A DNA stretch of 64,000 nucleotides from a virus (lineage: Duplodnaviria; Caudoviricetes): positions 1 to 64,000 of the IMG/VR virus record IMGVR_UViG_3300035428_000399; one strand, given 5' to 3'. A model generated the notes under the pieces. The model saw only the letters and a program-made list of their open reading frames with translations. It was not told the origin of the DNA and made no database searches. Numbering within the stretch: the stretch's first letter is position 1; every line of letters begins with the position of its first letter. Position numbers and translations under genes: made by a program. Below are positions 1,005 to 49,909 of the stretch, in pieces.

Positions 1005-1036
1005 CAAAGGTAGTCAAAAACTCGCTCAAATGCAAA
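1005..1036 (-). promoter_or_regulatory. leftward promoter, probably for the repressor
   Basis: minus strand TTTG (1036-1033), 20-nt spacer, TACCTTTG (1012-1005). Confidence 0.65.
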
Positions 1037-1159
1037 TAAGTATTATATCAAAAATCCGCAGGAAATGAAAACGACGATTAACAAACATCGTAGATTCACC
1101 GAGTGTGGCTATCAAATGTCACACTCGGCTCCTGCCGCAGTTATGGGAAAGGAGGCGGT

Positions 1160-1363
1160 ATGGAGCAAGTAGCAAAGATTCCTATATCCCCAACATTGAG
1201 GAAGCTCATGCCGGGAGAAAAGGCTGTGTTCCCTATTGAGCAATGCAGCTCGGTAACAGCAATCGTTAGCAAGTTCCGCAAAGACTTAGCAAGAATAGGC
1301 TGGGACGCCGACGTAAAAAGCGACACCAAGGAATACACCGTGACGGTATTCCGCACGAAGTAA
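1160..1363 (+). CDS. small protein in the Cro position
   Basis: 67-aa ORF (MEQVAKIPISPTLRKL...) that is the first clear gene of the early operon. Confidence 0.6.
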   Translation: MEQVAKIPISPTLRKLMPGEKAVFPIEQCSSVTAIVSKFRKDLARIGWDADVKSDTKEYTVTVFRTK

Positions 1364-1422
1364 ATGCAAATAAGGTATCTGCCCTTAGCAGACAAATTAA
1401 ATATCAATAAAAATAGTTCAAC

Positions 1423-2373
1423 ATGGGACTCATCAAGAAATCCAATGAATTGGTCATCCCGCAAACGGTCAAGATGATGATCTACGGCCAAGCCGGTATG
1501 GGTAAGACCACTGTGGCGCTCAGTGCGCCGAAACCTCTCCTCCTCGACTTCGACAATGGCGTAAAGCGCGTCAATCTCGCTCATCTGGAGAACGTAGACA
1601 TCGTTCAGGTCGATAATTGGAAAGAGATTCAGCAACTCCTCCAGCAAGACCAGGCAGACATCACACCCTACCAGACAATCGTTGTAGACACCATCGGTAA
1701 GATGATGGACTACATTATCACTCACTGCTGCGGCACGCGCCAGCCGCAAATCAAGGATTGGGGCCGCATCAATCAGGAGTTCACATGGTTCACCCGTGCA
1801 CTCTCTTCCCTCAACAAGCACATCGTCTTTGTCGCCCACCGTGATAGTCGCAAGGAAGGTGACGAAACTGTTTTCATCCCGTCGCTTCGCGAGAAATCCT
1901 ACAACTCCATCGTTACCGAACTCGACCTGCTTGGCTATTTGGAAATGAAGTCGGAGCGCGGGGTACAGAGCCGTACTATCACATTCGACCCCACATCGCG
2001 CAACGACGGCAAGAATACCTGCAATCTGCCATCAGTTATGCAGGTTCCCACCATCCTCAACTCCAACGCAGAACCCACAGCCCCCAACACGTTCATTACC
2101 GAAAAGGTAATCACCCCCTATCTCACAATGCTCGATGTTAAAGCCGAAGAACGTCGCAAGTATGACGAGCTCATCGACGCCATCACAGAAGATGTCAACA
2201 ATATCACTGATGCTCAGTCGGCCAACGACTTCGCCGCGAGAATCAAGGAATACAAACATATCGGCAGTTCCATGGCGAAGGCCCGTTCTCTATTCGGTGC
2301 AAAGGTAAAAGAACTCGGCCTCGTCTACGACACCGAAAACAAGACCTACACTGATGCAGAGCCGGCCGCTTGA
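1423..2373 (+). CDS. Sak4-like AAA ATPase / single-strand annealing recombinase
   Basis: Walker A YGQAGMGKTT, LLLDFDNG, Walker B IVVDTIG, FVAH motif. Confidence 0.85.
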   Translation: MGLIKKSNELVIPQTVKMMIYGQAGMGKTTVALSAPKPLLLDFDNGVKRVNLAHLENVDIVQVDNWKEIQQLLQQDQADITPYQTIVVDTIGKMMDYIITHCCGTRQPQIKDWGRINQEFTWFTRALSSLNKHIVFVAHRDSRKEGDETVFIPSLREKSYNSIVTELDLLGYLEMKSERGVQSRTITFDPTSRNDGKNTCNLPSVMQVPTILNSNAEPTAPNTFITEKVITPYLTMLDVKAEERRKYDELIDAITEDVNNITDAQSANDFAARIKEYKHIGSSMAKARSLFGAKVKELGLVYDTENKTYTDAEPAA

Positions 2374-3196
2374 GAACGTTTCGTATAGATTCTATGCGAC
2401 GCTCCTCGATGGCTTCCAAGACTATCTGAACAGCGACATTATATACGAAAAGTATTGGGGTTACTCTGAGAACCCGCCCCATACTCCTGAGGAGTTCAGG
2501 CAGAAGCAGTTTCAATCTCTCATTGATAGAATAAACCGTGTTCCCTTTGACAGCGAAGCCGCTGACAAAGGTACGGCATTCAATGAGATTATCGACTGCA
2601 TGATTGAACACCGTAAGAGTGATAAGGTCGATGTCAGATATGCCTACGAAACCATCGTATTAGGACAGGTAGATAATTGCGAGCCGGACGAAAGATGGGC
2701 CGAAGTACAGCAGACCAACAAAATTGTCGGTCTGAACGCCACCTATAATAATAGGACGTTCTACTTCGACATCAATCTTTGCCGTGAATTCGCCAATTAC
2801 TACAAAGGTGCTTTGACCCAGCAGTTCGTCCGGGCCATTGTGCCGACACGTTTCGGAAATGTCGAGGTGTATGGGTATGTCGACGAACTCATGCCCCAGA
2901 GCATCCACGACATCAAGACCACCGGTAAATACTCAGTCGGCAAGTTCAAAGACCACTGGCAGCACATCGTCTACCCGTATTGCTATCAGCAGAACGGTCA
3001 GGACTTACGTCTATTTGAGTATAACATAGCCGAGATAGACAAATACGGACGGTGGGAGACATACACGGAATCATATATGTATAAGCCGGAGCGCGATGTT
3101 CCGAAGCTCATAGCCATGTGTGAGGAACTGATATGTTTCCTTATCGAGAACCGCCATCTTATTACCGATCGCAAAATCTTCAACCTATCGGCATGA
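2354..3196 (+). CDS. PD-(D/E)XK-like nuclease, probable recombinase partner
   Basis: GYVDELM...HDIKTT motif; overlaps the Sak4-like gene. Confidence 0.6.
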   Translation: MQSRPLENVSYRFYATLLDGFQDYLNSDIIYEKYWGYSENPPHTPEEFRQKQFQSLIDRINRVPFDSEAADKGTAFNEIIDCMIEHRKSDKVDVRYAYETIVLGQVDNCEPDERWAEVQQTNKIVGLNATYNNRTFYFDINLCREFANYYKGALTQQFVRAIVPTRFGNVEVYGYVDELMPQSIHDIKTTGKYSVGKFKDHWQHIVYPYCYQQNGQDLRLFEYNIAEIDKYGRWETYTESYMYKPERDVPKLIAMCEELICFLIENRHLITDRKIFNLSA

Positions 3197-3197
3197 A

Positions 3198-3596
3198 ATG
3201 GTAGCGACTGCCATACTGATAAAGAATGATTCCGAAGGGACACGGATTAACCGCTCTTTGGTGGAAATGATAGAGGGATTGCCTGACGGCAAGTATCGCA
3301 TCATCATTGAACCACAAAGTGTGCGTCATTCCGTGCCCCAACGGAAACTTTTGTTTATGTGGATGTCGCTTTTGGCACGGGAAACGGGCAACAGTAAGGT
3401 TAGGCTCTATAAATATTTTTGTAGTAAGTTTCTTCTCGATGATATGCCGAGTGTGTCGGAAATGTCGTCGGCGCAGTTGACCCATTTCATGCACGAGATA
3501 GAGGCCGATGTAGCGCAGAACCTTGGATTCACATTGCCAATACCCGAAGACGGAGAAGATTTCATCTCATTCTTAAAAGACTTTAAGGATAAATGA
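3198..3596 (+). CDS. NinB-like recombination accessory protein
   Basis: SVPQRKLLFMWM...SEMSSAQLTHFMHEIE...LPIPED pattern and position. Confidence 0.55.
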   Translation: MVATAILIKNDSEGTRINRSLVEMIEGLPDGKYRIIIEPQSVRHSVPQRKLLFMWMSLLARETGNSKVRLYKYFCSKFLLDDMPSVSEMSSAQLTHFMHEIEADVAQNLGFTLPIPEDGEDFISFLKDFKDK

Positions 3597-5399: not shown

Positions 5400-6368
5400 A
5401 TGGAAGACTTTGAAGTACAATATCTATCCGTATTAGACGCACGGAGCGCCCTCTGGCGGCACAGAAAGCGCGAGTGGCTTGATATTATAGGACCGGAAGG
5501 GAAAAGCCGAGAAAAGGCACTCTACGGCTCCCTAGCTATGAGGTTCCCCGGACTATATGCACGCACTAAAGAAGAACGCGAAAAGCTCGGCATTTCATTC
5601 GATGAATATATCGAGCAGTACGGTCCTGAAGATGCAAGAGATACCAAAGAATACTCAAAGATGAGCGATGGAGTCAGTACATTCGACCCCGTCCTTGCCG
5701 AGATAATATACGAATGGTTCATTTCATGTGAGGGAGCGAAGATATTTGATTGTTTCACCGGCGGAATTACCAAGGGCGCAGTCGCTGTTGCCAAAGGACA
5801 TAGTTTCACCGGCATCGACATCAGGTCGAGCCAAGTTGAGGTAAACAATGAAAAGAGCGACGCCTTTTCGGTAGCCAACCAGTACTTACGATACTTCTGC
5901 GACGATGCCAGAAACCTCCTGAAGTACATCGGCGTTGCCACGCAGGATTTATTTATCAGCTGTCCGCCTTACTACAATCTCGAAGTTTATAGCGACCTCG
6001 CCGGCGACGCCTCCAATCAACCGACATATCAGGACTTCATTGCCATACTCCGCGACGCTTTCGAGAAGGCAGTCAAATGTCTCAAGTGGAATAGGTTTGC
6101 CATTGTCATAGTTGGCGACATCCGAGACAACAAGGGAGCATACTATAATTTCCCCGGCGATGTCATCCGTATATTCCAAAATTGCGGCTGTGCGTTCCTC
6201 GATGATATTATATTGTTCCGCCCCGATGCTACAGCGAATCTAAGAGCAAAACGGTACATGAAATCAAGGAAAGTCGTAAGAGTTCATGAGCGCGTCCTTG
6301 TGTTCTACAAAGGTAATGCGTCGGTTATCAAGAAACACTTCACACCACTAAAATCCAATGAATTGTAG
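5400..6368 (+). CDS. amino (m6A/m4C) DNA methyltransferase
   Basis: motif I IFDCFTGG, motif IV SCPPYY, phage-type N-terminus SVLDARSALW. Confidence 0.85.
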   Translation: MEDFEVQYLSVLDARSALWRHRKREWLDIIGPEGKSREKALYGSLAMRFPGLYARTKEEREKLGISFDEYIEQYGPEDARDTKEYSKMSDGVSTFDPVLAEIIYEWFISCEGAKIFDCFTGGITKGAVAVAKGHSFTGIDIRSSQVEVNNEKSDAFSVANQYLRYFCDDARNLLKYIGVATQDLFISCPPYYNLEVYSDLAGDASNQPTYQDFIAILRDAFEKAVKCLKWNRFAIVIVGDIRDNKGAYYNFPGDVIRIFQNCGCAFLDDIILFRPDATANLRAKRYMKSRKVVRVHERVLVFYKGNASVIKKHFTPLKSNEL

Positions 6369-6768
6369 AGAACCGATACAACAGAGAATCCGGGATTTAG
6401 GACTGACGCAAAGAGCCGTCAGTCATGCGATGGGAGTTACCGACCAGAGTTTGAGCAACTTTCTTAACGGGAGTCGCACTTACTCTTATTTGGCCTATGT
6501 GAAATTGCTTAGAGTCCTCGGCCTTACTCTCGGTCACGAGGGTGACAACGTCGGTGCCGCGCCCGCATTGTCCGTGCGCCGTATCATTAAAGCCGAGATA
6601 GAAAAGAGAGGGCAACCACTCAGTGAAATAGCGAAACGTTGCGATGTCCGAGGCTCTACTCTATCCTCGTTCCTGACAGGACGCCGTGGGATACGCGTAA
6701 ATTCTTTAGAAAGAATCATAACAGAACTGGGGCTGACTTACGTCAGTTTCGGCGAACCAACAATATAA
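6358..6768 (+). CDS. protein with two XRE HTH domains
   Basis: LTQRAVSHAMGVTDQSLSNFLNG and LSEIAKRCDVRGSTLSSFLTG. Confidence 0.8.
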   Translation: MNCREPIQQRIRDLGLTQRAVSHAMGVTDQSLSNFLNGSRTYSYLAYVKLLRVLGLTLGHEGDNVGAAPALSVRRIIKAEIEKRGQPLSEIAKRCDVRGSTLSSFLTGRRGIRVNSLERIITELGLTYVSFGEPTI

Positions 6769-8942: not shown

Positions 8943-9034
8943 TTGCAGATTTGATTAAAATAATTGCCCATATATTTGCGTATATGATTATTTTTGATTA
9001 CTTTTGTATATGCAAATAAGATGTTTAATCAAAA
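8943..9034 (+). promoter_or_regulatory. conserved promoter module, copy A
   Basis: TTTG 8975, 20-nt spacer containing ATGATTATTT, TACTTTTG 8999-9006, TGCAAATAAG 9011, TAATCAAAA 9026. Confidence 0.8.
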
Positions 9035-9044
9035 CTCAAAAGAC

Positions 9045-9251
9045 ATGGATAAGAAAAGAGAATACGCAGAGTACCTACAAGAGAAATACGAATCCGAAGA
9101 GTGGTACAATGAAATGTCATTCGAGGAATTCATCCGAATGGAAGTAGCTACCTGCGATCCTATCTCGAAAGAGGTTGTCATGGAATCCTGCGAAAGCGAG
9201 GAGACTGCACTCGAAGAGTTTATCCACTTCTGCGAGTACCTATACAAGTAA
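9045..9251 (+). CDS. small acidic hypothetical protein
   Basis: first ORF after promoter copy A. Confidence 0.65.
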   Translation: MDKKREYAEYLQEKYESEEWYNEMSFEEFIRMEVATCDPISKEVVMESCESEETALEEFIHFCEYLYK

Positions 9252-9284
9252 ATGCAAATAAGAAATCTAACAAAATCCGCAATT

Positions 9285-9584
9285 ATGAAAGTAGATAAAT
9301 CAAGTATCTTCAAAGTGGCGAACGCAATCCACCGCAGTCAGAATGGGCTCACAATCGGAGAAGCCCTGAAGATGGCGTGGAAAGCCGCGAAACTCCAAGT
9401 TGAACTTGCCGCCGGCGAAGTTCGGTTCCGCTACCGCAAAGTGAATGGAGAAATCCGCGAGGCCTTAGGAACACTCAAGAATATGGTGACTGACACATTC
9501 TCAGCATTCAACGGCACCGCAATGTTTTACTTCGACATCGAAAAGATGGGGTTCCGTTCATTCGTTGTCGCTAACCTCGTCTGA
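9285..9584 (+). CDS. SH3 beta-barrel (WYL_2/DUF2693-like) protein
   Basis: EVRFRYRKVNGEIREALGTL...YFDIEKMGFRSF. Confidence 0.75.
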   Translation: MKVDKSSIFKVANAIHRSQNGLTIGEALKMAWKAAKLQVELAAGEVRFRYRKVNGEIREALGTLKNMVTDTFSAFNGTAMFYFDIEKMGFRSFVVANLV

Positions 9585-9887: not shown

Positions 9888-10514
9888 ATGAATCTTTTCA
9901 AAACACTTTCAGAAGTGCTTGGCAACGGTTGCACAGCGACCATAACCATCGCACAGAAAGACGGCATCATGACCGTCGGCGTACTTCCAGGGAACAATCT
10001 CGTAAAGGACGGAGCCAAGAACAAAATCGTCCCCCTAAACATATCCGGCACACCTGAAGAACTCGACGAAGGATTCGTCGATGCCATCGCCGAGCCGGTC
10101 CGTAAGACCGCCGGTTTACTCGTAGATATGGCATCCTATGAGCAGGCCGCTGAAGAAGCCAAAGCCAACTCCAAAATGGAGGAAGAAAAGAAAATTGCCG
10201 AGGCCAATCGTAAAAAAGACTACGAAGGTTACGTCAATCTCGCCCGCACCAACCTGAAGGAGCAGAAATACCGCGACGCTCTAAAGTGTGTGGAATCCGC
10301 ACGCAAGGTCGCTCTTCCCTCTGATAAGACAGCCCTCGACACCCTGATGAACGAAATCAACTCTGCCTCTGGCGAGGGCGCGCTGTTCGGTCCATCCGAA
10401 GATAAGTCCGACGGTAAGAATATATCACTCAACGCCCCCAAGGGCAAGAAAGATAAGCCGGCATCCAGTGAGTGTGAAAGCGATTGTGAAACCAGCGAAG
10501 ACGAGGAGGAATAA
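9888..10514 (+). CDS. PRTRC system protein E
   Basis: VPLNISGTPEELDEGFVDAIAEP motif; first gene of the cassette. Confidence 0.85.
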   Translation: MNLFKTLSEVLGNGCTATITIAQKDGIMTVGVLPGNNLVKDGAKNKIVPLNISGTPEELDEGFVDAIAEPVRKTAGLLVDMASYEQAAEEAKANSKMEEEKKIAEANRKKDYEGYVNLARTNLKEQKYRDALKCVESARKVALPSDKTALDTLMNEINSASGEGALFGPSEDKSDGKNISLNAPKGKKDKPASSECESDCETSEDEEE

Positions 10515-10517
10515 ACC

Positions 10518-10727
10518 ATGGCACTCAATACATCGAAATTCCCGCGCGTCTTCAAGAAAAAAGATGAAATTCTTCCTGACCCGAATCCTATGCTCTCGCC
10601 GGAGGAGGTCATGGCCTACTACTCCAACCAATATCCTGAACTGACGACTTCCAACGTCTTCGGCCCCAAAATCGAGAACGACAAGGCCGTCTACGAGTTC
10701 AAGACCACCGTAGGAACAAAAGGATGA
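10518..10727 (+). CDS. PRTRC system protein C (ubiquitin-like)
   Basis: LPDPNPMLSPEEVMAYYSNQYPELTT; ends in VGTKG. Confidence 0.9.
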   Translation: MALNTSKFPRVFKKKDEILPDPNPMLSPEEVMAYYSNQYPELTTSNVFGPKIENDKAVYEFKTTVGTKG

Positions 10728-10746
10728 ATAGATCGGAATCCGAAGA

Positions 10747-11943
10747 ATGGAGACTTCTCTCAAAAATAGGAAGGATTCTACTCAAGGAGCAAGGTCGCCG
10801 CAATCATCTACGAGCCGTGGAAGAACGCGAGCCGGTTTTGTTACCGAAAAGAAAGTGCAGAATGCCTTTCTGAACGAAGTCCTCAGCCCGATACCATTAG
10901 TCAACCTGCCCGTTTGTGATAAACCATTCGGGCAGGTTACTGAAAATGGGGTTGTCTATTGGACCTATAAGAACGAGTTCAAGATAGACGCCGCCAGCAA
11001 TATCGAGTATCTCGCGGCTGCAGTTGGGGCATATTGCAATATCCAATGCGCTGAATTTGACTTTACTCCGTCCGATAACGCTTTGGCAGATTTGAGTGAA
11101 TTGCTTTGCATAGCCAAATCTGTGGCGCCTACAGACCACGAAATTAGCCTTGACTATGACGAGAAGATGAATATGGTTGTCATACTTGAGTACGACTTGT
11201 GCGATTTTGACTATAACACTATCTTCTTCTTCCCGGTGTCATTCGTAGAAAGACTTCCGAAAGAATTAAGGCCGATTGTAACCAGCGCATACAGCGTCCT
11301 CTCTATCTGCAACTACGCGCAGATGCCCGAAGACCATTGTGATGCGGCGTACACCCTGGGGCTGTGGGACGATGGCGAGCAATTAGCCGAACTGAAAGCT
11401 GAGGACGAGGAAAGATACAATGAACTAAAATCTTTTATAGACTCATACCTTGAGGGAAAAATCCATCAGCTTATATGCGAATGTCATTCTTTTCCCAGCG
11501 ATCTTGACAAGATGCGCTCAGACCTCGAAGAAGCCCGTGCCAAATATGCGGGGACTCAATATGGCCCTCTACTAAATTCAATACGAGACGGACTGATATT
11601 GAGTGAGGAAGATAAATGGATAAATTATATTCGTACACCGTCTTGGTGCAATATAGAAGATTTCGACGAACACGATGAAGGAATGATGGACCCCAGCCGC
11701 CTCTTTGTTATGGTCTACGATTTAATGGACGAGATTGTAGAAGGCATAACTGACTGCATCAACGGCGAAGCAAGTTCAATCGACGTGAGTGGTCTGTACG
11801 ACTTTAGGATACTTACTCCGGAAATAGATTCTGACTTTTGTGCATCGGACTTCCCGAAAAGGTGGGCCGAGTGGTTCGGCAGTTTCGTAGATATTACAGA
11901 ACATATAAGAAATGAGCAATCAACTGACACGAGCGCTGGATGA
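10747..11943 (+). CDS. PRTRC cassette protein (protein F position)
   Basis: acidic 398-aa ORF between the C and B genes, overlapping B. Confidence 0.6.
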   Translation: METSLKNRKDSTQGARSPQSSTSRGRTRAGFVTEKKVQNAFLNEVLSPIPLVNLPVCDKPFGQVTENGVVYWTYKNEFKIDAASNIEYLAAAVGAYCNIQCAEFDFTPSDNALADLSELLCIAKSVAPTDHEISLDYDEKMNMVVILEYDLCDFDYNTIFFFPVSFVERLPKELRPIVTSAYSVLSICNYAQMPEDHCDAAYTLGLWDDGEQLAELKAEDEERYNELKSFIDSYLEGKIHQLICECHSFPSDLDKMRSDLEEARAKYAGTQYGPLLNSIRDGLILSEEDKWINYIRTPSWCNIEDFDEHDEGMMDPSRLFVMVYDLMDEIVEGITDCINGEASSIDVSGLYDFRILTPEIDSDFCASDFPKRWAEWFGSFVDITEHIRNEQSTDTSAG

Positions 11944-12604
11944 AATGTACGACCCCAAAATGGCTATCGTCGTATATTCTTCAACCAATTCAGCCCCATA
12001 TTTGGAGCGACGCGATATTATTGACGGCAAAATGGGTGCCGGTAAGCCCCTAACCAAGAAATGTGTTACCGAAATATTCAGGGCTATCGTAGAGGACTCT
12101 GAAGACCTTTCGCAAGGTTATCACGGCGTAATCCCTAAGAACTTGCTTTATGCCGACACGACCACAGGTCGCACCAGACTTATCTGGTACAATCCTCCCA
12201 TGAAAAGGAGAATGTATTTTGTAGATTCACTTGGTATACCCGAAGGAGAGGTTGTCATGCCAGGGATAGTTTATGAAGCAAACGATAATTCTCTGAAAGT
12301 CTACTGTTTCAAAGGGAAGTCGCCTAAAGACCCTCTCTATCAGGCTCCGTTCTTCAATGTGAGCAATCATGCGGTCTGTCTTGGCACTGCCAAAACGAAA
12401 CGTCCGAAGTCTTTAACCTATACCGAGGCGATGGAGTATTGGGAGACAATGTTTTGGAACTCGGAGTTTTCCCATATCTACGGCGGTAATCCAGTGAAGG
12501 GCAATCTTGCCGTGATAACCAAGAACTGCATCGAAAAAGGCGAGCCGTTCCCGATGGACGCGCTCATAAAGTCGGAAATCAAACTGAAAGACATTCTCAA
12601 ATGA
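11912..12604 (+). CDS. PRTRC system protein B (prokaryotic E2-like)
   Basis: LIWYNPPMKRRMYF, LYQAPFFNV, VCLG, FWNSEFSH. Confidence 0.85.
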   Translation: MSNQLTRALDEMYDPKMAIVVYSSTNSAPYLERRDIIDGKMGAGKPLTKKCVTEIFRAIVEDSEDLSQGYHGVIPKNLLYADTTTGRTRLIWYNPPMKRRMYFVDSLGIPEGEVVMPGIVYEANDNSLKVYCFKGKSPKDPLYQAPFFNVSNHAVCLGTAKTKRPKSLTYTEAMEYWETMFWNSEFSHIYGGNPVKGNLAVITKNCIEKGEPFPMDALIKSEIKLKDILK

Positions 12605-13359
12605 AAACTCATTTCACGCATAACTACATCACAAATCCACGGCACCGCGTAACTGTGAACCTGATCGGAGCCGGCGGAACGGGTAGCCAAGTTGTTGGCG
12701 CCCTCGCTCGCATGGATTATGCCCTCTACAAGTTAGGACATCCTGGGTTGTTTGTGACTATCATCGACGACGATATTGTTACGGAAGCGAACATCGGCCG
12801 GCAATTATTCAGCGCGTCGGATATAGGGTTGAACAAAGCCAATGTGCTTGCAACTCGTATCAATTCTTTCTACGGGACTGATTGGGAAGCCAAGAAGATG
12901 ATGTACGATGGAAAGAACTCAGCCGCCGCCAACATTACCATAACTTGTGTCGATAGTGTAAACGCCCGCGTAGCCATAGGTAAGAACCTAAGGCAAGCTG
13001 GTGGCTTCGACGACAGGTTACAAATCTATTGGCTTGATTTCGGCAATCAGCTCGACCGAGGTCAAGTCATTCTCGGAACACTGAAAGATGTGGAGCAACC
13101 GAAAAGCCGGAAGTATAAGACCGTGAAAAGCATGAAGTGTGTAGACGAGTTCTTCAACCTTAGCGAGGTCAAGGACGAAGACAGTGGGCCAAGCTGCTCA
13201 CTCGCGGAGGCTCTGCGCAAGCAGGATTTATTTGTCAACTCATTCCTGGCTCAGACGGGATGCGCTTTGCTGTGGAAACTCTTCTATGACGGCAACATTG
13301 ATATGCAAGGTGCATTTGTCAATCTGGCTACCATGAACGTAAACCCCATCAAACTATGA
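12601..13359 (+). CDS. PRTRC system ThiF (E1-like) protein
   Basis: IGAGGTGS, DDDIVTEANIGRQLF, CVDS, SCSLAEALRKQDLFVN. Confidence 0.9.
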   Translation: MKTHFTHNYITNPRHRVTVNLIGAGGTGSQVVGALARMDYALYKLGHPGLFVTIIDDDIVTEANIGRQLFSASDIGLNKANVLATRINSFYGTDWEAKKMMYDGKNSAAANITITCVDSVNARVAIGKNLRQAGGFDDRLQIYWLDFGNQLDRGQVILGTLKDVEQPKSRKYKTVKSMKCVDEFFNLSEVKDEDSGPSCSLAEALRKQDLFVNSFLAQTGCALLWKLFYDGNIDMQGAFVNLATMNVNPIKL

Positions 13360-14414: not shown

Positions 14415-14860
14415 ACCATATAGGAGAGTCCTCTTTTAAGTACATCATGCGCAAGTCTGGGCGCAAGCCAATTTCATGTCAGTGCGCGAAGTGCCAGTCA
14501 CAATGTCATACACCCTGTCTCGGTACTCCAGAAGATATTCTTAAAATAATCAAGGCCGGATATAAAGACCGAGTTGCTCCAACAGAGTGGTGGGCCGGAA
14601 TTATTATGGGAGTATGCAAGAAGCCCATCTATATGATTCAGGTCATCCAAGAGGAGAACGGTTATTGTACTTTCTTCCATGACGGGAAGTGCGAGTTGCA
14701 TGAACTCGGATTGAAGCCGACCGAAGGTAAGCTTTCTCATCATTCCATCAGAGCCGACAATTTCAACCCGAAAAAGTCCCTTTCGTGGCTTGTTGCCAAA
14801 GAGTGGCTCGAACCTAATCCAACAGAAATAGACGAGATTTGCAGAATGTTGCAAGAATGA
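14411..14860 (+). CDS. Cys-rich YkgJ-like metal/Fe-S binding protein
   Basis: CQCAKCQSQCHTPC and CTFFHDGKCELH...KP. Confidence 0.6.
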   Translation: MNHIGESSFKYIMRKSGRKPISCQCAKCQSQCHTPCLGTPEDILKIIKAGYKDRVAPTEWWAGIIMGVCKKPIYMIQVIQEENGYCTFFHDGKCELHELGLKPTEGKLSHHSIRADNFNPKKSLSWLVAKEWLEPNPTEIDEICRMLQE

Positions 14861-14879
14861 TTATTTTATAATCCCATGG

Positions 14880-14941
14880 CTTGCATATATGATTATTTAT
14901 GTTTATCTTTGCAAATGCAAATAAGATGAATTTAATCAAAA
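14880..14941 (+). promoter_or_regulatory. conserved promoter module, copy B
   Basis: CTTG 14880, 20-nt spacer, TATCTTTG 14904-14911, TGCAAATAAG 14916, TAATCAAAA 14933. Confidence 0.8.
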
Positions 14942-14953
14942 ACCGAACTTCAA

Positions 14954-17666: not shown

Positions 17667-18377
17667 ATGAAAAAGTATATTGGCAAAGAAGAGATTTCTG
17701 CAGAACCCATGACCTATGGGGAGGCATTCAAAGACGGCATTATTCCGGAGAACGCATACGTCGAAGAGCTCTCTGACAGTAAAGGGTACAAAATAGTCGG
17801 AGTCGACAAAGCTGTCGGCTGGTTACCCAAGGATGACTTCGAGTCTTTATATCGCGTAGCCGAAACGCACCTCGACCGCATCAACATCGAGGACAAAGAC
17901 CTGCGCGAGAAATGCTGTCGTCTCTCGGATTTCATCAACAACAACGATAAATTCAAGGGACTGTCTCTGGGGGACAAGGCTATGCTTGTGGCACAGTTCC
18001 ACATGATGAACGCTTACTCCAGCATTCTATCGCTGCGCCAGTCTACTATTGAAGGCGGCGTGAGTGGTCGCCCATACGGATTCTCCTTCGAGCAGGTACT
18101 TCCTCTCATACGTGAGGGATACGCAGTCCGACGTAACGGATGGAACGGAAAGGGGCTCATGGTGTTCAAGCAGATCCCGGCTCATATCGGCTCCGACATC
18201 ATCCCCAAGATGCAGTCCCTCCCCAACGAGGCCAAGAGGCTCATCCTGGCTCATGGGGACCACATCGACTATGTTTCTCAGTGCCTCATCTTCAATGCCG
18301 ATACCGGCGAAGCCAATTCGTGGGCGCCATCCATCAGCGATGTCTTTGCCAACGACTGGGAACTTGTCGTAGAGTAA
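17667..18377 (+). CDS. three-domain fusion: KYIG...WLPKDDFE domain + Acb2-like + Tad2 (DUF2829)-like nucleotide-sponge candidate
   Basis: aa 138-236 FSFEQVLPLIREGYAVRRNGWNGKG...WAPSISDVFANDW; aa 66-125 RINIEDKDLREKCCRLSDFI...AQFHMMNAYSSILSLR. Confidence 0.75.
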   Translation: MKKYIGKEEISAEPMTYGEAFKDGIIPENAYVEELSDSKGYKIVGVDKAVGWLPKDDFESLYRVAETHLDRINIEDKDLREKCCRLSDFINNNDKFKGLSLGDKAMLVAQFHMMNAYSSILSLRQSTIEGGVSGRPYGFSFEQVLPLIREGYAVRRNGWNGKGLMVFKQIPAHIGSDIIPKMQSLPNEAKRLILAHGDHIDYVSQCLIFNADTGEANSWAPSISDVFANDWELVVE

Positions 18378-22882: not shown

Positions 22883-22913
22883 AAAAACGAGTCTACCCTC
22901 CCGGGCAAACTCG
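22883..22913 (-). terminator. intrinsic terminator (minus strand)
   Basis: CGAGUUUGCCC-GGGA-GGGUAGACUCG-UUUUU: 11-bp stem, GNRA loop; two G-U pairs form only on the minus strand. Confidence 0.8.
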
Positions 22914-22999
22914 CTCATATGCAAATAAGATATCTAATCAAAAATCCGACAAGATGCTTTCCCTAAAGAGCGCATCAGGGACTCAAAATTAAATATCAA
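22883..22999 (-). ncRNA. candidate trans-acting antisense sRNA (5' end approximate)
   Basis: minus-strand promoter at 23005-23036 and minus-strand intrinsic terminator at 22883-22913; body complementary to repeated gene-start motifs. Confidence 0.65.
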
Positions 23000-23036: not shown

Positions 23037-23115
23037 ATTTTGAGGAGAAAAATCAGCAATCTAACATGGGTGGTGTTGCGCGAATAATCATATTGATTAT
23101 TTTTAATCAGACAAA

Positions 23116-23146
23116 TTGCGTAACTCCCGATTTTTGATTAACTTTG
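23116..23146 (+). promoter_or_regulatory. promoter of the ParB/methyltransferase cluster
   Basis: TTG 23116-23118, 20-nt spacer, TAACTTTG 23139-23146; TGATTA/TAATCA boxes nearby. Confidence 0.65.
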
Positions 23147-25971: not shown

Positions 25972-26008
25972 AAAGGCTTGCAGATAGGATTAAAAATCTG
26001 TGCTGAAA

Positions 26009-26067
26009 TTTGCGTAATTGATTAAATTTCAGTATATTTGTAGTTGCAAATAAGATACTAATCAAAA
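26009..26067 (+). promoter_or_regulatory. conserved promoter module, copy C
   Basis: TTTG 26009, 20-nt spacer, TATATTTG 26033-26040, TGCAAATAAG 26045, TAATCAAAA 26059. Confidence 0.8.
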
Positions 26068-26072
26068 ACAAA

Positions 26073-26543
26073 ATGGTCGAAATAGAATATTGCTACTTCC
26101 GCAATACCTACAAAATAATATGGTTGCGGTACGTCTATGGAGTAGACCTCAACACGCACTGCATGAAAAGTCTTCTTGGGCACAATGACAAACGTGTCAA
26201 AGGCTTTATGCGGTCTCTTCCTCCCAACATGGAATTGGAAGAAAGCAGGTTCTACTATCTCTGCGGAGTCGATAAGGATTTCAATTGGAACAAAAACCTC
26301 CATATTCCCTTTGTCCGCAGTGTGGGACAGACTCTTGAGATTGACAACGAGTTTGTCAAAATCAAGATTAACAATGCCCGAATGATTCACATTGATACGA
26401 GCTACATCAATTGGAATCTTCCGCAAGCCCGAAACAAGCTCTTCAACACCTGCAGGAATTGGCAGTTTGCGAATATGCTGGCGTCAATTCCCAGTGTGCC
26501 ACAAACTCCTACACAATCCCAATTAGGACTTTTCGATAAATAA
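26073..26543 (+). CDS. uncharacterised Cys/His-motif protein, paralog of 41311-41814
   Basis: WLRYVYGVDLNTHC, YYLCGV, NLHIPF, NTCR. Confidence 0.7.
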   Translation: MVEIEYCYFRNTYKIIWLRYVYGVDLNTHCMKSLLGHNDKRVKGFMRSLPPNMELEESRFYYLCGVDKDFNWNKNLHIPFVRSVGQTLEIDNEFVKIKINNARMIHIDTSYINWNLPQARNKLFNTCRNWQFANMLASIPSVPQTPTQSQLGLFDK

Positions 26544-26555: not shown

Positions 26556-26954
26556 ATGAGAAAACCCTCTCTTGACGAATTTGAAGACGCCATCCGAAAG
26601 ACCGGCGGCAATCTCTCGCAGACTGCCGGTCTTCTCGGTGTGACCCGGCAGACAGTCCACAACTGGGTCCGAGAAGACGGCGAATTCAAAAGCGTTGTGC
26701 AGGATTCCCGAAAGAAACTCTTCGACCAGTGCCTTGATGCGGCCCGCATTGTTGCTCTTGGTGTTCCACACATCGATCCGGCCACCGGGCATATTCTTGG
26801 CTGGAAAGAGAAGCCCGACGGACAGATGCTCCGTTATCTGCTGTCAACACTTGGACGTGATGAGGGCTTCGGCGAATCCGTGAATGTAAATCTTGAGAAT
26901 CCTTTACCAACAGTGATAAACATCGTAAGAGATCCGGACGCAAAACGTGAATGA
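26556..26954 (+). CDS. terminase small subunit-like HTH protein
   Basis: GGNLSQTAGLLGVTRQTVHNW; YLLSTLGRDEGF; upstream of terL. Confidence 0.6.
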   Translation: MRKPSLDEFEDAIRKTGGNLSQTAGLLGVTRQTVHNWVREDGEFKSVVQDSRKKLFDQCLDAARIVALGVPHIDPATGHILGWKEKPDGQMLRYLLSTLGRDEGFGESVNVNLENPLPTVINIVRDPDAKRE

Positions 26955-29637: not shown

Positions 29638-29877
29638 ATGGCAACCGTAAGAGACAAAATCTTCCTTCGCATGAAGGAACTCGACGTTAAGCAGACCGAG
29701 TTGAGCGAGAAAGTCGGTATCAAGACTCAGAACCTCTCAGCCTACCTCCGAGGAAAGCGCACGATTCCATTCGATGTGCTTGAGAAAATATGTATGGTGC
29801 TGGGCTTGACCCTCGGCAGCACCGATGTTGTGTATCAACCTTCTAAACCCAATCCCGATGTTCAGAGAAAAGATTAA
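29638..29877 (+). CDS. XRE HTH protein
   Basis: VKQTELSEKVGIKTQNLSAYLRG. Confidence 0.8.
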   Translation: MATVRDKIFLRMKELDVKQTELSEKVGIKTQNLSAYLRGKRTIPFDVLEKICMVLGLTLGSTDVVYQPSKPNPDVQRKD

Positions 29878-30094
29878 AGGAAAGATGAACGAGTGCGGCA
29901 TTTCCGTAAAGGAACTGTCTGAGCAGACGAAGATTAACCCCAGCACAATCTCGTCATTTCTAGTTGGCAACCGCGCTATCAGCAACGAGAATCTTGACAC
30001 GATTCTCGCGGCACTTGAACTCACGTTGGTGCCGAAGGCGAAGTTCACATATCAGGGCAACGAACCCCAGATTGACCCCGGTGTAAAGGTGTGA
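29858..30094 (+). CDS. XRE HTH protein
   Basis: ISVKELSEQTKINPSTISSFLVG. Confidence 0.75.
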   Translation: MFREKIKGKMNECGISVKELSEQTKINPSTISSFLVGNRAISNENLDTILAALELTLVPKAKFTYQGNEPQIDPGVKV

Positions 30095-31530: not shown

Positions 31531-31595
31531 AATCATGCAGTTAGTAATCACAAACGTCTGGGCATCACCCGGAGTAATGTAAGTAACTTTGAGAT

Positions 31596-40750: not shown

Positions 40751-41314
40751 TTAGAAGCCGTCCGAGAATGAAGTCTTTGAATTCTTGCCAAGAGCATCAG
40801 TTATAAGTGTGTGCTCTTTGGCAAGAATCTTGCCGACTTTATCTTTCTTCCATTCCTTTTCATACATTTTAGAATCGCCAAGCTCAATCCTTATTTTAGC
40901 GATTCCTGACTGGATCTGTTCAAGTTGTTCAGGTGTGATAGAGTATTGGGCCGATACCTCCCATATATTGATTCCGGAGATTGTTTTTAGCTCATCTGTG
41001 CCACCCATATAGGTAGACAGTTCGACTACGTTACCTGCCGTAGTTTTTATGAGCATTCGGCCTCCCTTGTGGATAGTTGTTACTTCCCCGCAGTTCAACT
41101 GGATACAGAGGGTATATAACCCCTCTCTCGATACTGGTTGCATATAGCTTAGCCCGATAAAGAGCTTCATTTTGTCGGAAAATCCTCCGACATTCTCCTT
41201 CGAGCAGAAGATATATCTATTGCCATCAGCAGGAGTGTCGTCTGAAATAATTTTCTGTGCGAATGCTGATGCCCCAATCAATAGGCACGCAAGCAGGGAC
41301 ATAACCTTATTCAT
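40751..41314 (-). CDS. secreted protein (moron)
   Basis: signal peptide MNKVMSLLACLLIGASAFA; opposite strand to the flanking virion genes. Confidence 0.75.
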   Translation of the reverse strand: MNKVMSLLACLLIGASAFAQKIISDDTPADGNRYIFCSKENVGGFSDKMKLFIGLSYMQPVSREGLYTLCIQLNCGEVTTIHKGGRMLIKTTAGNVVELSTYMGGTDELKTISGINIWEVSAQYSITPEQLEQIQSGIAKIRIELGDSKMYEKEWKKDKVGKILAKEHTLITDALGKNSKTSFSDGF

Positions 41315-41814
41315 ATCGTAGTCTTTAATAATTCAGGGTGGAAGAAACCAATCATCCAGCGGAAGATGCGGCAGGTATAGTAATGGTAGTCGTATGGAGC
41401 CTCAAAGAATCTTCTGTTCAATTCATCTTCGGCAGGTATACGGTCAACGTAACCGCCGTCAATCTCGATATGCCAGCCATCGAAATCGAAAGTGTCAGTC
41501 GCACCCTCTTTAGGAATTATTGGCAAGTGTAGGTTGTGGGGGTAGTTCTTCTTGGTAGAAAAGCCAGCTTTGAATACTCCACATACATAAATCGCCTTGT
41601 AGCTACCATCGGGTTGCTCATCAAAGGTTATTTCGTTTGGGAATGGCGCGTACTCGCCGGACACCTCATCTTTGTTCCAGGCTGCGCAGAACTTTTTACT
41701 CCACGAGCCTTTTACGCAAGCGGCACAATGGTGTCTTATATCTCCCTCCCGGACATATTTGGTCCAGAAGTATTTGAATTTTGTCGGGTCGATGTTATGT
41801 CTGATAGTTACCAT
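41311..41814 (-). CDS. uncharacterised Cys/His-motif protein, paralog of 26073-26543
   Basis: WTKYVREGDIRHHC, YVCGV, NLHLP, YTCR. Confidence 0.7.
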   Translation of the reverse strand: MVTIRHNIDPTKFKYFWTKYVREGDIRHHCAACVKGSWSKKFCAAWNKDEVSGEYAPFPNEITFDEQPDGSYKAIYVCGVFKAGFSTKKNYPHNLHLPIIPKEGATDTFDFDGWHIEIDGGYVDRIPAEDELNRRFFEAPYDYHYYTCRIFRWMIGFFHPELLKTTI

Positions 41815-41855
41815 AGTCACTTCATATTTGCGGTTCAACATAGGCAACCACCCAC

Positions 41856-42016
41856 AAAAAGACGCAGGACAGGAGCCTAACGTCGTCCGGCCTACCACAG
41901 CCGTTTACCCAATAGGTCGTGTCCTGCGCGTATATGCACACAGAGCCACTATGCCCAGTGGGTAAACTTTCGATAGCCCGATGTTATCAGTGTGGTAGTT
42001 CGACGACGATTAGGCT
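41856..42016 (-). promoter_or_regulatory. structured leader / attenuator (C4-like architecture)
   Basis: nested complementary blocks AGCCTAA/TTAGGCT, CGTCGTC/GACGACG, CTACCACA/TGTGGTAG, TTTACCCA/TGGGTAAA; alternative CGCAGGACA/TGTCCTGCG helix followed by U5. Confidence 0.6.
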
Positions 42017-42119: not shown

Positions 42120-42214
42120 TTGCAGATTTGATTAAAATAACGGCTATAAAAGTTGCAGGAATGATTATTTTTGATTATCTTTGCGTATGCAAATAAGATA
42201 AAACTAATCAAAAA
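42120..42214 (+). promoter_or_regulatory. conserved promoter module, copy D
   Basis: GTTG 42152, 20-nt spacer, TATCTTTG 42176-42183, TGCAAATAAG 42188, TAATCAAAA 42206. Confidence 0.8.
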
Positions 42215-42225
42215 CATCGGACACG

Positions 42226-42901: not shown

Positions 42902-42986
42902 CTACACATAAGAAACTTATAGACACCCTGAAAAGGATTACCAATCACGCAAGTAAGATATTCCCAATCAAAAAATTCACCGCAAT

Positions 42987-45699: not shown

Positions 45700-45792
45700 T
45701 TGCAGATGCGATTAAAATAGTTGCTCTAAAATTTGCGTATGTGATTATTTATTGCTACTTTTGTATATGCAAATAAGATGATTTAATCAAAA
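45700..45792 (+). promoter_or_regulatory. conserved promoter module, copy E
   Basis: TTTG 45732, 20-nt spacer, TACTTTTG 45756-45763, TGCAAATAAG 45768, TAATCAAAA 45784. Confidence 0.8.
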
Positions 45793-45803
45793 CCGAAAAG
45801 ACC

Positions 45804-46979: not shown

Positions 46980-47016
46980 TCAGCAATAGAATCACTCAAA
47001 ATTAAATATCAATAAA

Positions 47017-48849
47017 ATGCAAGTAAGAAATATCGCACTCAGCGAGATTGTTCCCAGCGAACTCAATCCTCGCAAGACGTTCAGCCAGGAAGAACTCGAA
47101 GAACTCGCCCAGAGTATCAAGGAGAACGGCCTCATTCAGCCCATCACTCTCCGCAAAATCGGCAACAAGAAAGACTCCAAGTATGAAATCGTGTGTGGCG
47201 AACGCCGTTTCCGCGCCTGCCAGCTCATCGGAGCCAAGGACATCCAGGCCGTCGTCAAGGAACTCAACGACAAGCAGGCTTTCGCTTGCATGATTATCGA
47301 GAACCTGCAGCGCAAGGACATCGACCCGATGGAAGAAGCCGCCGCCCTTAACCGCCTCTACGCCGAAGGCACCGTAACGGTAGTGGAAATGGCGAAGATG
47401 CTCGGCAAAAGTACAAGTTTCGTTTCGGGTCGCATCCAGCTCCACAATACCATCGAGCCGTTTGTCAAGCTCATGCGCGACGGCGTTCTGGTCCTGACAC
47501 ATCTTCTCGACATCTGCAAGCTGCCCGCTGAGCAACAGCAGACTCTCTACGACTCGTGTTTCACCGAGGCAAGCCGCGAGCGTTGGCCGTACAAATTCCC
47601 CAACATGCCCCAGCTCCACGAAATGATAGACGAGCATGTCATGAACCATCTGTCTACGGCCCGATTCAGTCTTACAGACGACACCCTCGCCGGCGCGTGT
47701 GCCTGCGACAAGTGTCCTCTCAACACCGCCAACAATCCCGACAATGCCCGCGATGTCAGCACTCCGCGTTGCATGAAGCGAGAATGCTTCCTCGCCAAGG
47801 CCCGCGAGTCAATCTTCCGCGAGGCTAAGGAAGCCTCCAAGAACGGCATCAAGATTGTCTTCGCCGGTGATTATGCGGAGAGCGAAGCGCTCCTGCAGGC
47901 CGCAGATGAATATGGTCTGGTCGTTTCGGGTCTCGGCAACCGTCAATATGTGGCGGAGCCGGTAGCTCCTGACCCCGCGCAGTATAAAGACGAAGAAACC
48001 TATGCAATCCGCAAGGCGAACTACGACAAGGTCCGCGCCGTCTTCGACGACAATCTCAAGGACGGCACCATCACCCCGGTCTACGAGATATGCTTCAGCG
48101 GACTTCTCAGTGGCGAAACCAAGTATGTCTACTATGTGCCCGACACTGAGGAAGAGCCGTTTGCCGGCAACAAGCTCGCCGACAACAATCGTCGTATCTC
48201 CGAACTCAAGGTCAAGCTCCACGAAGCCAACGAGCACCGCAAGGAAGAGTTTGTTGAACGTCAGCGCTCGTTCATGGAATCGGCCGAGTATTCCACGCTC
48301 AACACCGACCTCTCACCCGTAGAATCGCTCATTTTCCGTGCGCTCGTCCTCAAGCGTCTGCCCGTGGCATTCAAGGAATCCATCGGCTGTGGCGAAGCCC
48401 AGGCCAAAGACTTCCGCGAAGCCGGCGGATCTGTCGAAAAGAACTTCAACGCCATTGCCCGCGAATTTATTCGCTCAATTCTTTCCGAAAAGAGCGTGAA
48501 CTTCTCGCCTGAATTGGCAGAAATGCTCTCAGCAATCATGGAAGACCGCTACGCTCATAACGTCGATGAGATTGCCAAACAGCTCGACGCACGATATAGC
48601 CAGTCTAAGGCCGGCATTCAGGCCAAGATCGACGAACTCCGCGAGGAGAACGAGAAAGAAATCCAATCGCAAGCCGCTATCAGTCCCGACGCTAAAGCCG
48701 AAGAAGCAACCGAAACCGGCGAAGCCGAGCCGACCGACACAACCGAGGTAGAAGAGGCGGAATCGCCCAGTGTGCCGGACGCACCCGAAGAAGTCGAAGA
48801 AACTCCTGACGCTACAGATGCGGCCGAGGACACCGACAAGGAAGAATAA
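47017..48849 (+). CDS. ParB/Spo0J family protein (PRTRC ParB-like)
   Basis: NPRKTF...LAQSIKENGLIQPI...VCGERRFRA...ENLQRKDI; CACDKCPLNT...RCMKREC; acidic tail. Confidence 0.88.
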   Translation: MQVRNIALSEIVPSELNPRKTFSQEELEELAQSIKENGLIQPITLRKIGNKKDSKYEIVCGERRFRACQLIGAKDIQAVVKELNDKQAFACMIIENLQRKDIDPMEEAAALNRLYAEGTVTVVEMAKMLGKSTSFVSGRIQLHNTIEPFVKLMRDGVLVLTHLLDICKLPAEQQQTLYDSCFTEASRERWPYKFPNMPQLHEMIDEHVMNHLSTARFSLTDDTLAGACACDKCPLNTANNPDNARDVSTPRCMKRECFLAKARESIFREAKEASKNGIKIVFAGDYAESEALLQAADEYGLVVSGLGNRQYVAEPVAPDPAQYKDEETYAIRKANYDKVRAVFDDNLKDGTITPVYEICFSGLLSGETKYVYYVPDTEEEPFAGNKLADNNRRISELKVKLHEANEHRKEEFVERQRSFMESAEYSTLNTDLSPVESLIFRALVLKRLPVAFKESIGCGEAQAKDFREAGGSVEKNFNAIAREFIRSILSEKSVNFSPELAEMLSAIMEDRYAHNVDEIAKQLDARYSQSKAGIQAKIDELREENEKEIQSQAAISPDAKAEEATETGEAEPTDTTEVEEAESPSVPDAPEEVEETPDATDAAEDTDKEE

Positions 48850-48908
48850 ATCATCAATCTCATTCATGGGTGCGGGCACCTCGCTCGCACCATAAACCTA
48901 TTTCAAAA

Positions 48909-49514
48909 ATGAAATTAACATTACAGAAACTGACTCAATGGCACCACAACGAGTTGTACAACATCGCGCTCTCCGGCCCTATGTCTCCAATGTCTGCGGC
49001 GAAAGACTTTGTGTCGAAAGTCTTTGAGGAAGGCAACATGGTTATCACGGGCCTTTTCAGAATCCAAGGCGACGGAGAGACAACCTTCACTACATGGGAG
49101 AACGCTGACATCGAGCCGGTGCAAGTGGACGTAATCTGTTGTATCCTCAACTTCCGGCACATGGCTGTCTTCGGAGAAATCGGGAGTCGCTATATGCCAA
49201 TCGCCCTCATTCTTGATGGCGAAGCGCAGTTCAGCGAACTATACACCACCTACAAATGGGAATCGGCACCGACCATTCAGGAGGTTGCCGATGTCCTCAG
49301 CACAATCAATCTCGCCGAACTCAAGAAGCAATTCGAGGACTATCGGTGGACTGTCAAGGGCCTGCAAGCCGATGATTGGATGCTCGACCAGCCAATGAAA
49401 TCCCAGCTTACAATCCTTGGCGAGAAAATCCCCCGCGACGCCCTAATTAAATGGGATGCCATGAGCCCTCAAGAGAAATATAAAATCTATAAACAATGGA
49501 CGGCGAAGTCATAG
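48909..49514 (+). CDS. hypothetical protein
   Basis: A-rich start, packed. Confidence 0.65.
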   Translation: MKLTLQKLTQWHHNELYNIALSGPMSPMSAAKDFVSKVFEEGNMVITGLFRIQGDGETTFTTWENADIEPVQVDVICCILNFRHMAVFGEIGSRYMPIALILDGEAQFSELYTTYKWESAPTIQEVADVLSTINLAELKKQFEDYRWTVKGLQADDWMLDQPMKSQLTILGEKIPRDALIKWDAMSPQEKYKIYKQWTAKS

Positions 49515-49756
49515 TTCTTCAGGCAGGCGATCCCTAGCTCTCCACGAGCAGCCTGCGTACCGTCGGCATATTCTCCGATGAGGAACACTTCACGGAGTTT
49601 GCCGACAAAATGCTTGAGAAAGGAATTATATCCGATTGGGGCTACAAGAGCCTCACGGGATATTATGGCATGGGCCGGCAGTGCGACATCAAGAATGGCG
49701 CTCTTCTGGTAACGAAAGAACCCGTCAATCCCTCCATTGATTCCGTTGACCTCTAA
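49496..49756 (+). pseudogene. 86-codon ORF with internal TAG at 49535-49537
   Basis: MDGEVIVLQAGDP*LSTSSLRTVGIFSDEEHF...VDL stop; followed by a terminator. Confidence 0.55.
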
Positions 49757-49762
49757 TTGTTC

Positions 49763-49791
49763 GGGGCGTATCCGTTTGGGTGCGCCCCTTT
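49763..49791 (+). terminator. intrinsic terminator
   Basis: GGGGCGTATCC-GTTT-GGGTGCGCCCC-TTT. Confidence 0.7.
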
Positions 49792-49817
49792 GCTTTACTA
49801 TCAATCGCCCGAATAAA

Positions 49818-49909
49818 TTGCAGATTTGATTAAAACAACCTCTCTAAAATTTGCGTATATGATTATATTTGATTACTTTTGTATATGCAAATAAGATGTT
49901 TAATCAAAA
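49818..49909 (+). promoter_or_regulatory. conserved promoter module, copy F
   Basis: TTTG 49850, 20-nt spacer, TACTTTTG 49874-49881, TGCAAATAAG 49886, TAATCAAAA 49901; nearly identical to copy A. Confidence 0.8.

Follow-up and report, generated by a model that had tools for sequence, protein, structure and literature searches.

The temperate phage P1, of about 90 kb and with ParB functions, carries dispersed, asymmetric operators for its repressor C1, so that one repressor word is spread over many promoters. Phage T4 marks its late promoters with a short AT-rich word, TATAAATA, which needs the phage proteins gp55 and gp33. To our knowledge, almost nothing is known about regulation in temperate phages of the Muribaculaceae, or of the Bacteroidales generally, and we know of no immunity repressor or operator defined for them. 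In mycobacteriophages, the L5-type repressor binds more than 20 asymmetric 13-mers, which lie at promoters and in short intergenic spaces and are co-oriented with transcription, and it does so as a monomer via two DNA-binding domains (PMC9283540). Here, we analyze the short word TGCAAATAAG in the IMG/VR provirus record IMGVR_UViG_3300035428_000399 (89,123 bp; G000), the first 64 kb of which form the window. This provirus is temperate and siphovirus-like and belongs to gut Muribaculaceae; TGCAAATAAG is a phage-family-specific, asymmetric signal that always points along transcription. Our literature search found no paper with TGCAAATAAG in this context. We tentatively favor, with a probability of about 0.4, that a single regulator encoded by the phage recognizes the word as a dispersed, asymmetric site in DNA, which would serve as an operator at start sites and in a stoperator-like manner inside operons.

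Ten exact copies of TGCAAATAAG are present in the window (1031, 1365, 9011, 9253, 14916, 22920, 26045, 42188, 45768, and 49886), all on the + strand and intergenic, at the very coordinates listed in an initial annotation of this DNA. Shuffles that preserve dinucleotide composition contained on average 0.18 copies, with no shuffle exceeding one. Over the whole record, the word is found 14 times on the + strand and never on the - strand, with four copies beyond the window at genome positions 74209, 74996, 81699, and 86211, which agrees with the earlier description of a phage-wide, strand-specific intergenic motif. Nearly all genes of the record are on the + strand. Long open reading frames (ORFs) contain no copy, and the stop codons of the preceding genes adjoin the copies at 1365 and 9253. 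A variant noted before near 42948 is indeed present as CGCAAGTAAG, with two mismatches. When up to two mismatches were tolerated, however, 67 matches stood against 70 expected and the enrichment was gone, showing that the signal resides in the exact or near-exact word. This word consists of a core, GCAAATAAG, usually followed by ATA, and an A stands before the TGC in 12 of the 14 copies. Eight of the exact copies belong to promoters (six in the window), and six do not (four in the window) but stand alone within or between operons; counted by the 9-mer core, the genome holds eight non-promoter copies. The orientation bias also holds across nine related genomes, whose large terminases (TerL) are 62–99% identical and many of whose other proteins are 30–70% identical: the core GCAAATAAGA lies on the coding strand 127 times and on the opposite strand 5 times.

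Scanning one genome per species for the motif plus TAATCAAAA, a word located between the motif and the start codon, we found multi-copy matches only in Muribaculaceae and unclassified Bacteroidales assemblies, among them an isolate labeled Barnesiella sp. WM24, a lysogen of a family member (contig NZ_SPPC01000011.1). In five host genomes (2.1–3.5 Mb), the word is concentrated on one strand of a single stretch of ~90 kb, with 10–15 copies in four hosts and 4–6 in the fragmented fifth. The remainder of these genomes contains it 0–7 times, on both strands, which corresponds to the level of a reversed-word control (1–6 times), and two apparent outliers in one host (G006) proved to be the left end of the same prophage on another contig. 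The arrangement "-7 box, 3–4 nt, W, GCAAATAAGA" fell within prophage contigs in 21 of 21 cases from four hosts. This confinement of both word and cassette shows that the motif is not equally frequent in host promoters.

Six of the window copies (9011, 14916, 26045, 42188, 45768, and 49886) lie 4 nt after a TAnnTTTG box, which itself follows TTTG, CTTG, or GTTG at a distance of exactly 20 nt. The consensus of Bacteroidetes sigma-A (sigma-ABfr) promoters is TTTG at -33 and TAnnTTTG at -7 (PMC7366714), and all six cassettes have these elements and a spacer within the allowed range of ~19–21 nt. Since the cassette is a consensus sigma-A promoter, the motif begins at the predicted +1, give or take 2 nt, as the initial annotation had proposed for six copies, and TGCAAATAAG would represent the first ten bases of a predicted leader of 35–45 nt. 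The whole repeated cassette measures ~110 bp and has eight near-identical, motif-ending representatives in the genome (six in the window). Nearly all host-type promoters of the prophage carry the word at their predicted +1. The 5' part of the cassette contains two TTGC-N6-GATTA boxes ~33 bp apart, a distal and a proximal one, and the TTG of the latter forms the -33 element. The 3' part comprises the 20-nt spacer, the TAnnTTTG -7 box, four free bases, the motif, 2–6 bases, TAATCAAAA, and the start codon. The promoter units in the window are as follows:

8943–9044, + strand: promoter cassette with distal box at 8943, proximal box with the -33 element at 8976, -7 box at 8999–9006, motif at 9011–9020, and TAATCAAAA at 9026, followed by the start codon at 9045.
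14849–14953, + strand: promoter cassette with boxes at 14849 and 14881, -7 box at 14904–14911, and motif at 14916–14925.
25978–26072, + strand: promoter cassette with boxes at 25978 and 26010, -7 box at 26033–26040, and motif at 26045–26054, followed by the start codon at 26073.
42120–42225, + strand: promoter cassette with boxes at 42120 and 42153, -7 box at 42176–42183, and motif at 42188–42197, divergent from the leftward genes at 40751–41898.
45700–45803, + strand: promoter cassette with boxes at 45700 and 45733, -7 box at 45756–45763, and motif at 45768–45777.
49818–49920, + strand: promoter cassette with boxes at 49818 and 49851, -7 box at 49874–49881, and motif at 49886–49895, followed by the start codon at 49921.
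887–1040, + strand: atypical unit with TTGC-N6-GATTA boxes at 887, 926, and 959, -7 box at 972–979, and motif at 1031–1040.
23116–23146, + strand: for contrast, a sigma-A-type promoter without the motif, with the -33 element at 23116 and the -7 box at 23139–23146, in front of the ParB/methylase operon.

In the atypical unit, the motif is found ~45 nt into the predicted transcript, with a small hairpin and AACTCGCTCAAA on its 5' side. The box sequence TTGC-[AG]-N5-GATTA has a strand bias of 23:1 and defines 11 cassettes, of which two carry degenerate motifs (genome positions 73460 and 80404) and one is the atypical unit. The 15-mer at +1 in G000 resembles the boxes at -33 and -66 (GCA.AT..GAT), and the promoter copies rank in the top 0.04–0.6% of genome positions when scored with a matrix of the -33 box. 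The cassettes thus have the consensus -33 and -7 elements, the 20-nt spacer, conserved upstream boxes, and a short leader in common with Bacteroidetes sigma-A promoters and with P_BfP1E6, a strong repeated Bacteroides phage promoter used as a synthetic-biology tool (PMC11554821; bioRxiv 10.1101/2025.03.18.644028). In contrast, the conserved word at +1 and the promoter-less copies lie outside the described consensus, for P_BfP1E6 as judged from its description, and blastn of the cassette against isolated phage genomes gave no similarity.

The predicted leaders are nearly free of structure (-1 to -3 kcal/mol over ~55 nt) and rich in A, with 10–13 A in the 20 nt before the start codon compared to a genome mean of 8.3. 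The word could accordingly be imagined to have no dedicated reader and to be only the 5' leader, with its optimized initial transcribed sequence, of a strong promoter cassette that was duplicated; the isolated copies would be fragments of this cassette retained as modules for translation or stability. Homology among the repeated cassettes is clear, the lack of structure and the richness in A are typical of efficient Bacteroidetes leaders (PMC7366714), and a strong promoter of a Bacteroides phage, complete with its ribosome-binding region, is in use as a tool (PMC11554821; bioRxiv 10.1101/2025.03.18.644028). Nevertheless, we consider this explanation quite unlikely, because host promoters never use the word, because the adjoining spacer bases drift freely and the word does not, and because of three properties of the copies in related phages: isolated copies are kept at orthologous places without being tied to start codons, copies at promoters and elsewhere vary in concert, and further copies are located at -66.

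Comparison of the related genomes yielded 68 distinct promoter copies. In these, the gap between TAnnTTTG and GCAAATAAG is 5 nt (51 copies) or 4 nt (17 copies) and unconserved, and the distance from the G of the motif to the start codon ranges from 34 to 47 nt. As the promoter cassettes were selected on the core word, the core's own conservation in them is not independent evidence; the ATA that follows it is conserved in these motif-selected cassettes at about the level of the -7 box. The 53 distinct non-promoter copies have only aaaT-GCAAATAAG-AtA in common and lie 11–89 nt from a start codon, with 12 of the 53 having no nearby ORF. The word is therefore linked to where transcription starts and not to where translation does. 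These isolated copies are conserved at orthologous places across lineages.

Two further lineages are informative about the reader. In one of them (G011 and G012), the distal box at about -66 is TTGCAAATAAGATAAAC, the same as the +1 copy over 14 nt. Boxes of this type occur in at least six cassettes, sometimes ~25 nt after a strong terminator, and arrays of four copies with a spacing of 57–67 bp are also found. A copy upstream of the promoter can hardly act as a leader, and so the -66 boxes favor a reader at the DNA level. In a sister lineage (TerL 63–65% identical, GC 40%), the word is G[C/T]AAATAATA or G[C/T]AAATAAAA, such that position 9 is T or A but not G, and promoter and non-promoter copies agree within each genome. 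This coordinated change suggests that both classes of copies are read by the same lineage-specific partner, and argues against a factor-free leader as well as against a universal host reader. An 18-bp palindrome formed by the word in G012 was rejected as evidence for binding of a dimer, since it arises where the T-rich tail of a terminator meets the motif and the orthologue in G011 is non-palindromic. The rare reverse-oriented copies (in reoriented coordinates, G003 31667, G012 62968, and G014 5630; loci L087, L216, and L218) lie between a gene end and the terminator that precedes the next cassette, and point back into the upstream operon.

We favor a model in which a single sequence-specific protein, encoded by the phage, recognizes the word in its DNA form; the match between the -66 box and the +1 copy over 14 nt in G011 and G012 speaks for such a DNA-level reading. 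At promoters, this protein would cover the start site in an operator-like fashion, and the TTGC-N6-GATTA boxes at about -33 and -66 may help its binding. At isolated copies, it would act on the transcribing polymerase in an orientation-dependent manner, as at L5 stoperators; an effect of a DNA-bound protein on elongation is possible. A single factor could in this way switch all transcription units of the prophage together. The position of the motif at +1 suggests repression rather than activation, and the presence of 11 near-consensus promoters in a prophage suggests that some global silencer is needed.

The stoperators of cluster A mycobacteriophages (L5, TipsytheTRex; PMC9283540) resemble this arrangement in that a temperate siphophage carries many copies of a short, asymmetric, phage-specific word, which are placed at promoters and within short intergenic gaps and are co-oriented with transcription (here 14:0 in the record and 127:5 in the nine genomes). 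However, most copies here are at promoter start sites and not inside operons, the host is a member of the Bacteroidota with -33/-7 promoters, and no gp71-like repressor was recognized. In addition, the core is more conserved across divergent relatives than stoperators are, and both binding and an orientation-dependent block are putative here. The stoperator repressor combines a helix-turn-helix (HTH) with a second DNA-binding domain; the closest counterpart here is a tandem-HTH protein of the XRE type, which is encoded in a lytic-type operon and whose link to the word is putative. The operators of P1 C1 are similar insofar as one word overlaps many promoters in a temperate phage of ~90 kb with ParB functions, but they overlap the -35/-10 region instead of +1, and no C1 homologue was seen in our prophage. 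Because the defining proteins were not found or are only putative, the system is not assignable to stoperators, P1 C1 operators, or T4 late promoters.

A number of observations weigh against a dispersed operator. Pfam searches covering nearly all ORFs of at least 50 aa recognized no repressor or other reader of the motif among the phage proteins. The tandem-HTH gene (6358–6768) is located within a rightward lytic-type operon, and the leftward genes beside the 42188 cassette encode secreted-looking and Cys/His-rich proteins that are not repressor-like. The 9–10-base core is identical in phages with only 30–70% protein identity; immunity operators usually diverge faster. Isolated copies rank only in the top 1–3% of positions with the -33-box matrix and often lack the GAT half of the 15-mer. 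A few of them stand directly behind strong terminators, a position at which a promoter would make better sense than a redundant roadblock. Finally, every copy in G000 is transcribed or at a transcript start, and thus a role at the RNA level fits too.

The same Pfam searches detected no member of the sigma factor, RNA polymerase, NusG/KOW, Q, N, CI, or S24 families, although sigma-like factors can be too divergent for detection in this way. Candidate readers of the motif are the XRE-type HTH proteins, which include the tandem-HTH protein (6358–6768) and the products of two small adjacent single-HTH genes at 29638–30094 (29638–29877 and 29886–30094), just before TerL. These two genes look like a split version of the tandem-HTH protein; homologues are present in most relatives. 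Other recognizable regulators are an HTH_8 protein (26556–26954) and the excisionase. A further candidate is the WYL_2 protein (PF10902, Sm-like barrel), whose gene at 9285–9584 follows the copy at 9253 in G000; homologues are present in seven of eight relatives, with a motif copy directly upstream in six of the seven, and the protein may be either the motif reader or the product of a tightly co-regulated gene. The leftward, family-conserved two-gene unit at 40751–41898 (- strand) encodes a protein with an N-terminal signal peptide and a Cys/His-rich protein, and neither product gave a family or PDB match. For these reasons, we rejected the two genes as the immunity repressor; the unit is likely to be one of lysogenic conversion and not an immunity gene.

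The prophage harbors four ParB-like genes, two of which are conserved in all lineages, and the motif copies could be conceived as loading or partition-type sites of a phage ParB-family protein with KorB-like global control. We regard this as extremely unlikely, as parS and OB sites are palindromes, whereas our word is asymmetric and goes with start sites and the direction of genes.

The motif copies without an adjacent promoter are distributed in the window as follows, in addition to the copy of the atypical unit at 1031:

1365–1374, + strand: isolated copy that abuts the stop of ORF 1160–1363, 48 nt before an AAA_24 gene (1423).
9253–9262, + strand: isolated copy that abuts the stop of ORF 9045–9251, 22 nt before the WYL_2 gene.
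22886–22929, + strand: two-tier stem-loop (22886–22915) followed by the motif (22920–22929), with no adjoining promoter.
42948–42957, + strand: variant isolated copy, CGCAAGTAAG, 29 nt before ORF 42987.
47018–47027, + strand: variant copy, TGCAAGTAAG, at the annotated start of a ParB-like gene and preceded by TTAAATATCAAT.

The copies at 1365 and 9253, which directly follow a TAA stop codon, had already been described as promoter-less copies within operons, and this was borne out; 1031 and 22920, left unclassified at the time, are likewise without an adjacent promoter. The copies at 1031, 22920, and 81699 have a common AACTCGCTCA-W-A directly upstream, and the copy at 74996 precedes a holin-like gene. 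The stem-loop at 22886–22915 shows compensatory changes at 6 of 10 pairs among orthologues. A run of A is present on its 5' side but the 3' side has no run of U, unlike in a canonical rightward terminator.

From the copies at 1365 and 9253, the initial annotation had argued for a signal at the level of RNA or elongation rather than for an operator alone. The word would then be recognized either in the emerging RNA or in the non-template DNA strand of the transcription bubble, as a nut/boxA/ops-like loading site, a processing site, or the site of a phage RNA-binding protein, placed at the 5' end of units and repeated in long operons. Strict co-orientation with transcription, the predicted location of the word at the very 5' end of the leader, the copies inside operons, the structured element, supported by compensatory changes, that immediately precedes the 22920-type copy, and the Sm-like WYL_2 gene that so regularly follows a motif copy (six of the seven relatives carrying it, and G000) all point in this direction. 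We nonetheless find it rather doubtful. The identical 14-mer occurs upstream of promoters, ~66 bp from the start site, in the G011/G012 lineage, in some cases right behind a strong terminator. Copies away from promoters are not tied to start codons, and some copies come immediately after strong terminators, where an antiterminator would load on the wrong side.

The lambda nut/boxA and RfaH ops elements are also orientation-specific words in leaders that are repeated in long operons, but no cognate factor gene was detected here: Pfam revealed no NusG/RfaH-like, Q-like, or N-like protein, and hence no NusG paralogue of the RfaH or UpxY type in the phage, and the exact word is absent outside the prophage in one host (G007). 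In the one related host whose rRNA leader we inspected, the 700 nt upstream of the 16S gene contained no match to the word with at most one mismatch, which led us to discard mimicry of an rRNA boxA. Nor does the conserved hairpin correspond to a downstream boxB, as it is upstream of the word. An antisense target, also suggested initially, was dismissed because the genome has no reverse-complement copy that could supply the partner. Pairing with 16S rRNA as a translation enhancer was rejected as well: the longest complementary run falls in the variable part of the leader and was matched by 3 of 30 shuffles, so that complementarity to host 16S rRNA does not exceed that of shuffles. A small upstream ORF or a leaderless AUG is not compatible with the use of AGC by relatives and with the disagreement of the reading frames. 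A known RNA family or tRNA was likewise rejected, since Rfam gave nothing at its gathering score and the window contains no tRNA.

Alternatively, the word might itself be a promoter element, comparable to TATAAATA of T4, that is used by the host polymerase together with a phage sigma-like or appropriating factor. In that case, transcripts would begin a few bases downstream of each copy, whether or not sigma-A boxes are present. The word is an AT-rich 10–13-mer, strand-specific, and located upstream of genes, it is conserved in the family and absent from the host, and tandem copies precede some genes. Several copies directly follow strong terminators, and one stands before a lone opposite-strand gene in the sister lineage. 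Like the T4 late promoter, it is a single short AT-rich, family-conserved word that marks many transcription units, but gp55 and gp33 were not detected by Pfam, and in most copies the word is locked to a host-type promoter. An independent promoter would need no exact 4–5-nt offset from the sigma-A -7 box. Pfam recognized neither a sigma-like nor a polymerase-like protein, and the largest ORF (2721 aa), considered as a phage polymerase, was dropped because it has no Pfam match. Strong hairpins were scored before only 6 of 55 isolated copies, compared to 27 of 70 promoter cassettes, with a detector that under-calls hairpins; a fold of the whole region places a stem-loop ending at most ~15 nt upstream of ~15 isolated copies. 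On the former count, we rejected a general "terminator then motif" rule, bearing in mind the under-calling, and overall we consider a promoter element unlikely.

A broader interpretation, which we judge improbable, is that a Bacteroidota phage family has independently evolved genome-wide orientation-dependent control, in which one phage protein reads a 10–13-base tag as either DNA or RNA. The tag would stand at every unit start and at checkpoints inside operons. If read as DNA, it would represent a stoperator-like silencing unrelated to that of mycobacteriophages; if read as RNA, a 5' self-tag on phage messages. Should the isolated copies block or modify elongation, this would constitute a second, independent origin of stoperator-type control. 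The motif is robust, family-wide, and directly testable in an available isolate. It can serve as bait to find the regulator and as a marker of such prophages in metagenomes, and its AAG, AAT, and AAA variants could predict immunity groups from sequence. The cassettes are candidate strong switchable promoters for gut Bacteroidales.

The prophage genes comprise those for the large terminase, head protease, a tape-measure-like protein, amidase, holin, integrase, and excisionase, and further those for a reverse transcriptase, a PRTRC cassette, Tad2-like and crAss001_48-like domains, and several ParB-like proteins. In the first third of the genome (window 9888–13359 and 17667–18377), ORFs gave the Pfam matches PRTRC_E, Prok_Ub, Prok-E2_D, ThiF, Tad2-like, and crAss001_48. 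The motif-less promoter of the ParB/methylase operon (23085–23146) contains a perfect palindrome, TAATCATATTGATTA, built from the GATTA half of the boxes; the operon may be under different regulation and is possibly expressed in the lysogen.

A second strand-specific word, TTAAATATCAAT, has five exact copies in the window (1397, 9873, 22989, 43648, and 47002), all on the + strand and 0–14 nt before start codons, with 0.57 expected even when one mismatch is allowed; the first of these is downstream of the isolated motif copy at 1365. TTAAATATCAAT and TAATCAAAA have ATCAA in common and behave like the translation-start part of leaders, TTAAATATCAAT probably being a translation-start context used inside operons. 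A further word, (G/A)TAACTTTGA, resembles a -7 box but is accompanied by neither a -33 element nor TGCAAATAAG. It is found at 31583–31592 and 56277–56286 in the window and at genome position 77214, 3–45 nt before the gene after TerL, the head protease gene, and the SAM synthetase gene. Its count is not above chance, and it may represent a second, activator-dependent class of promoters.

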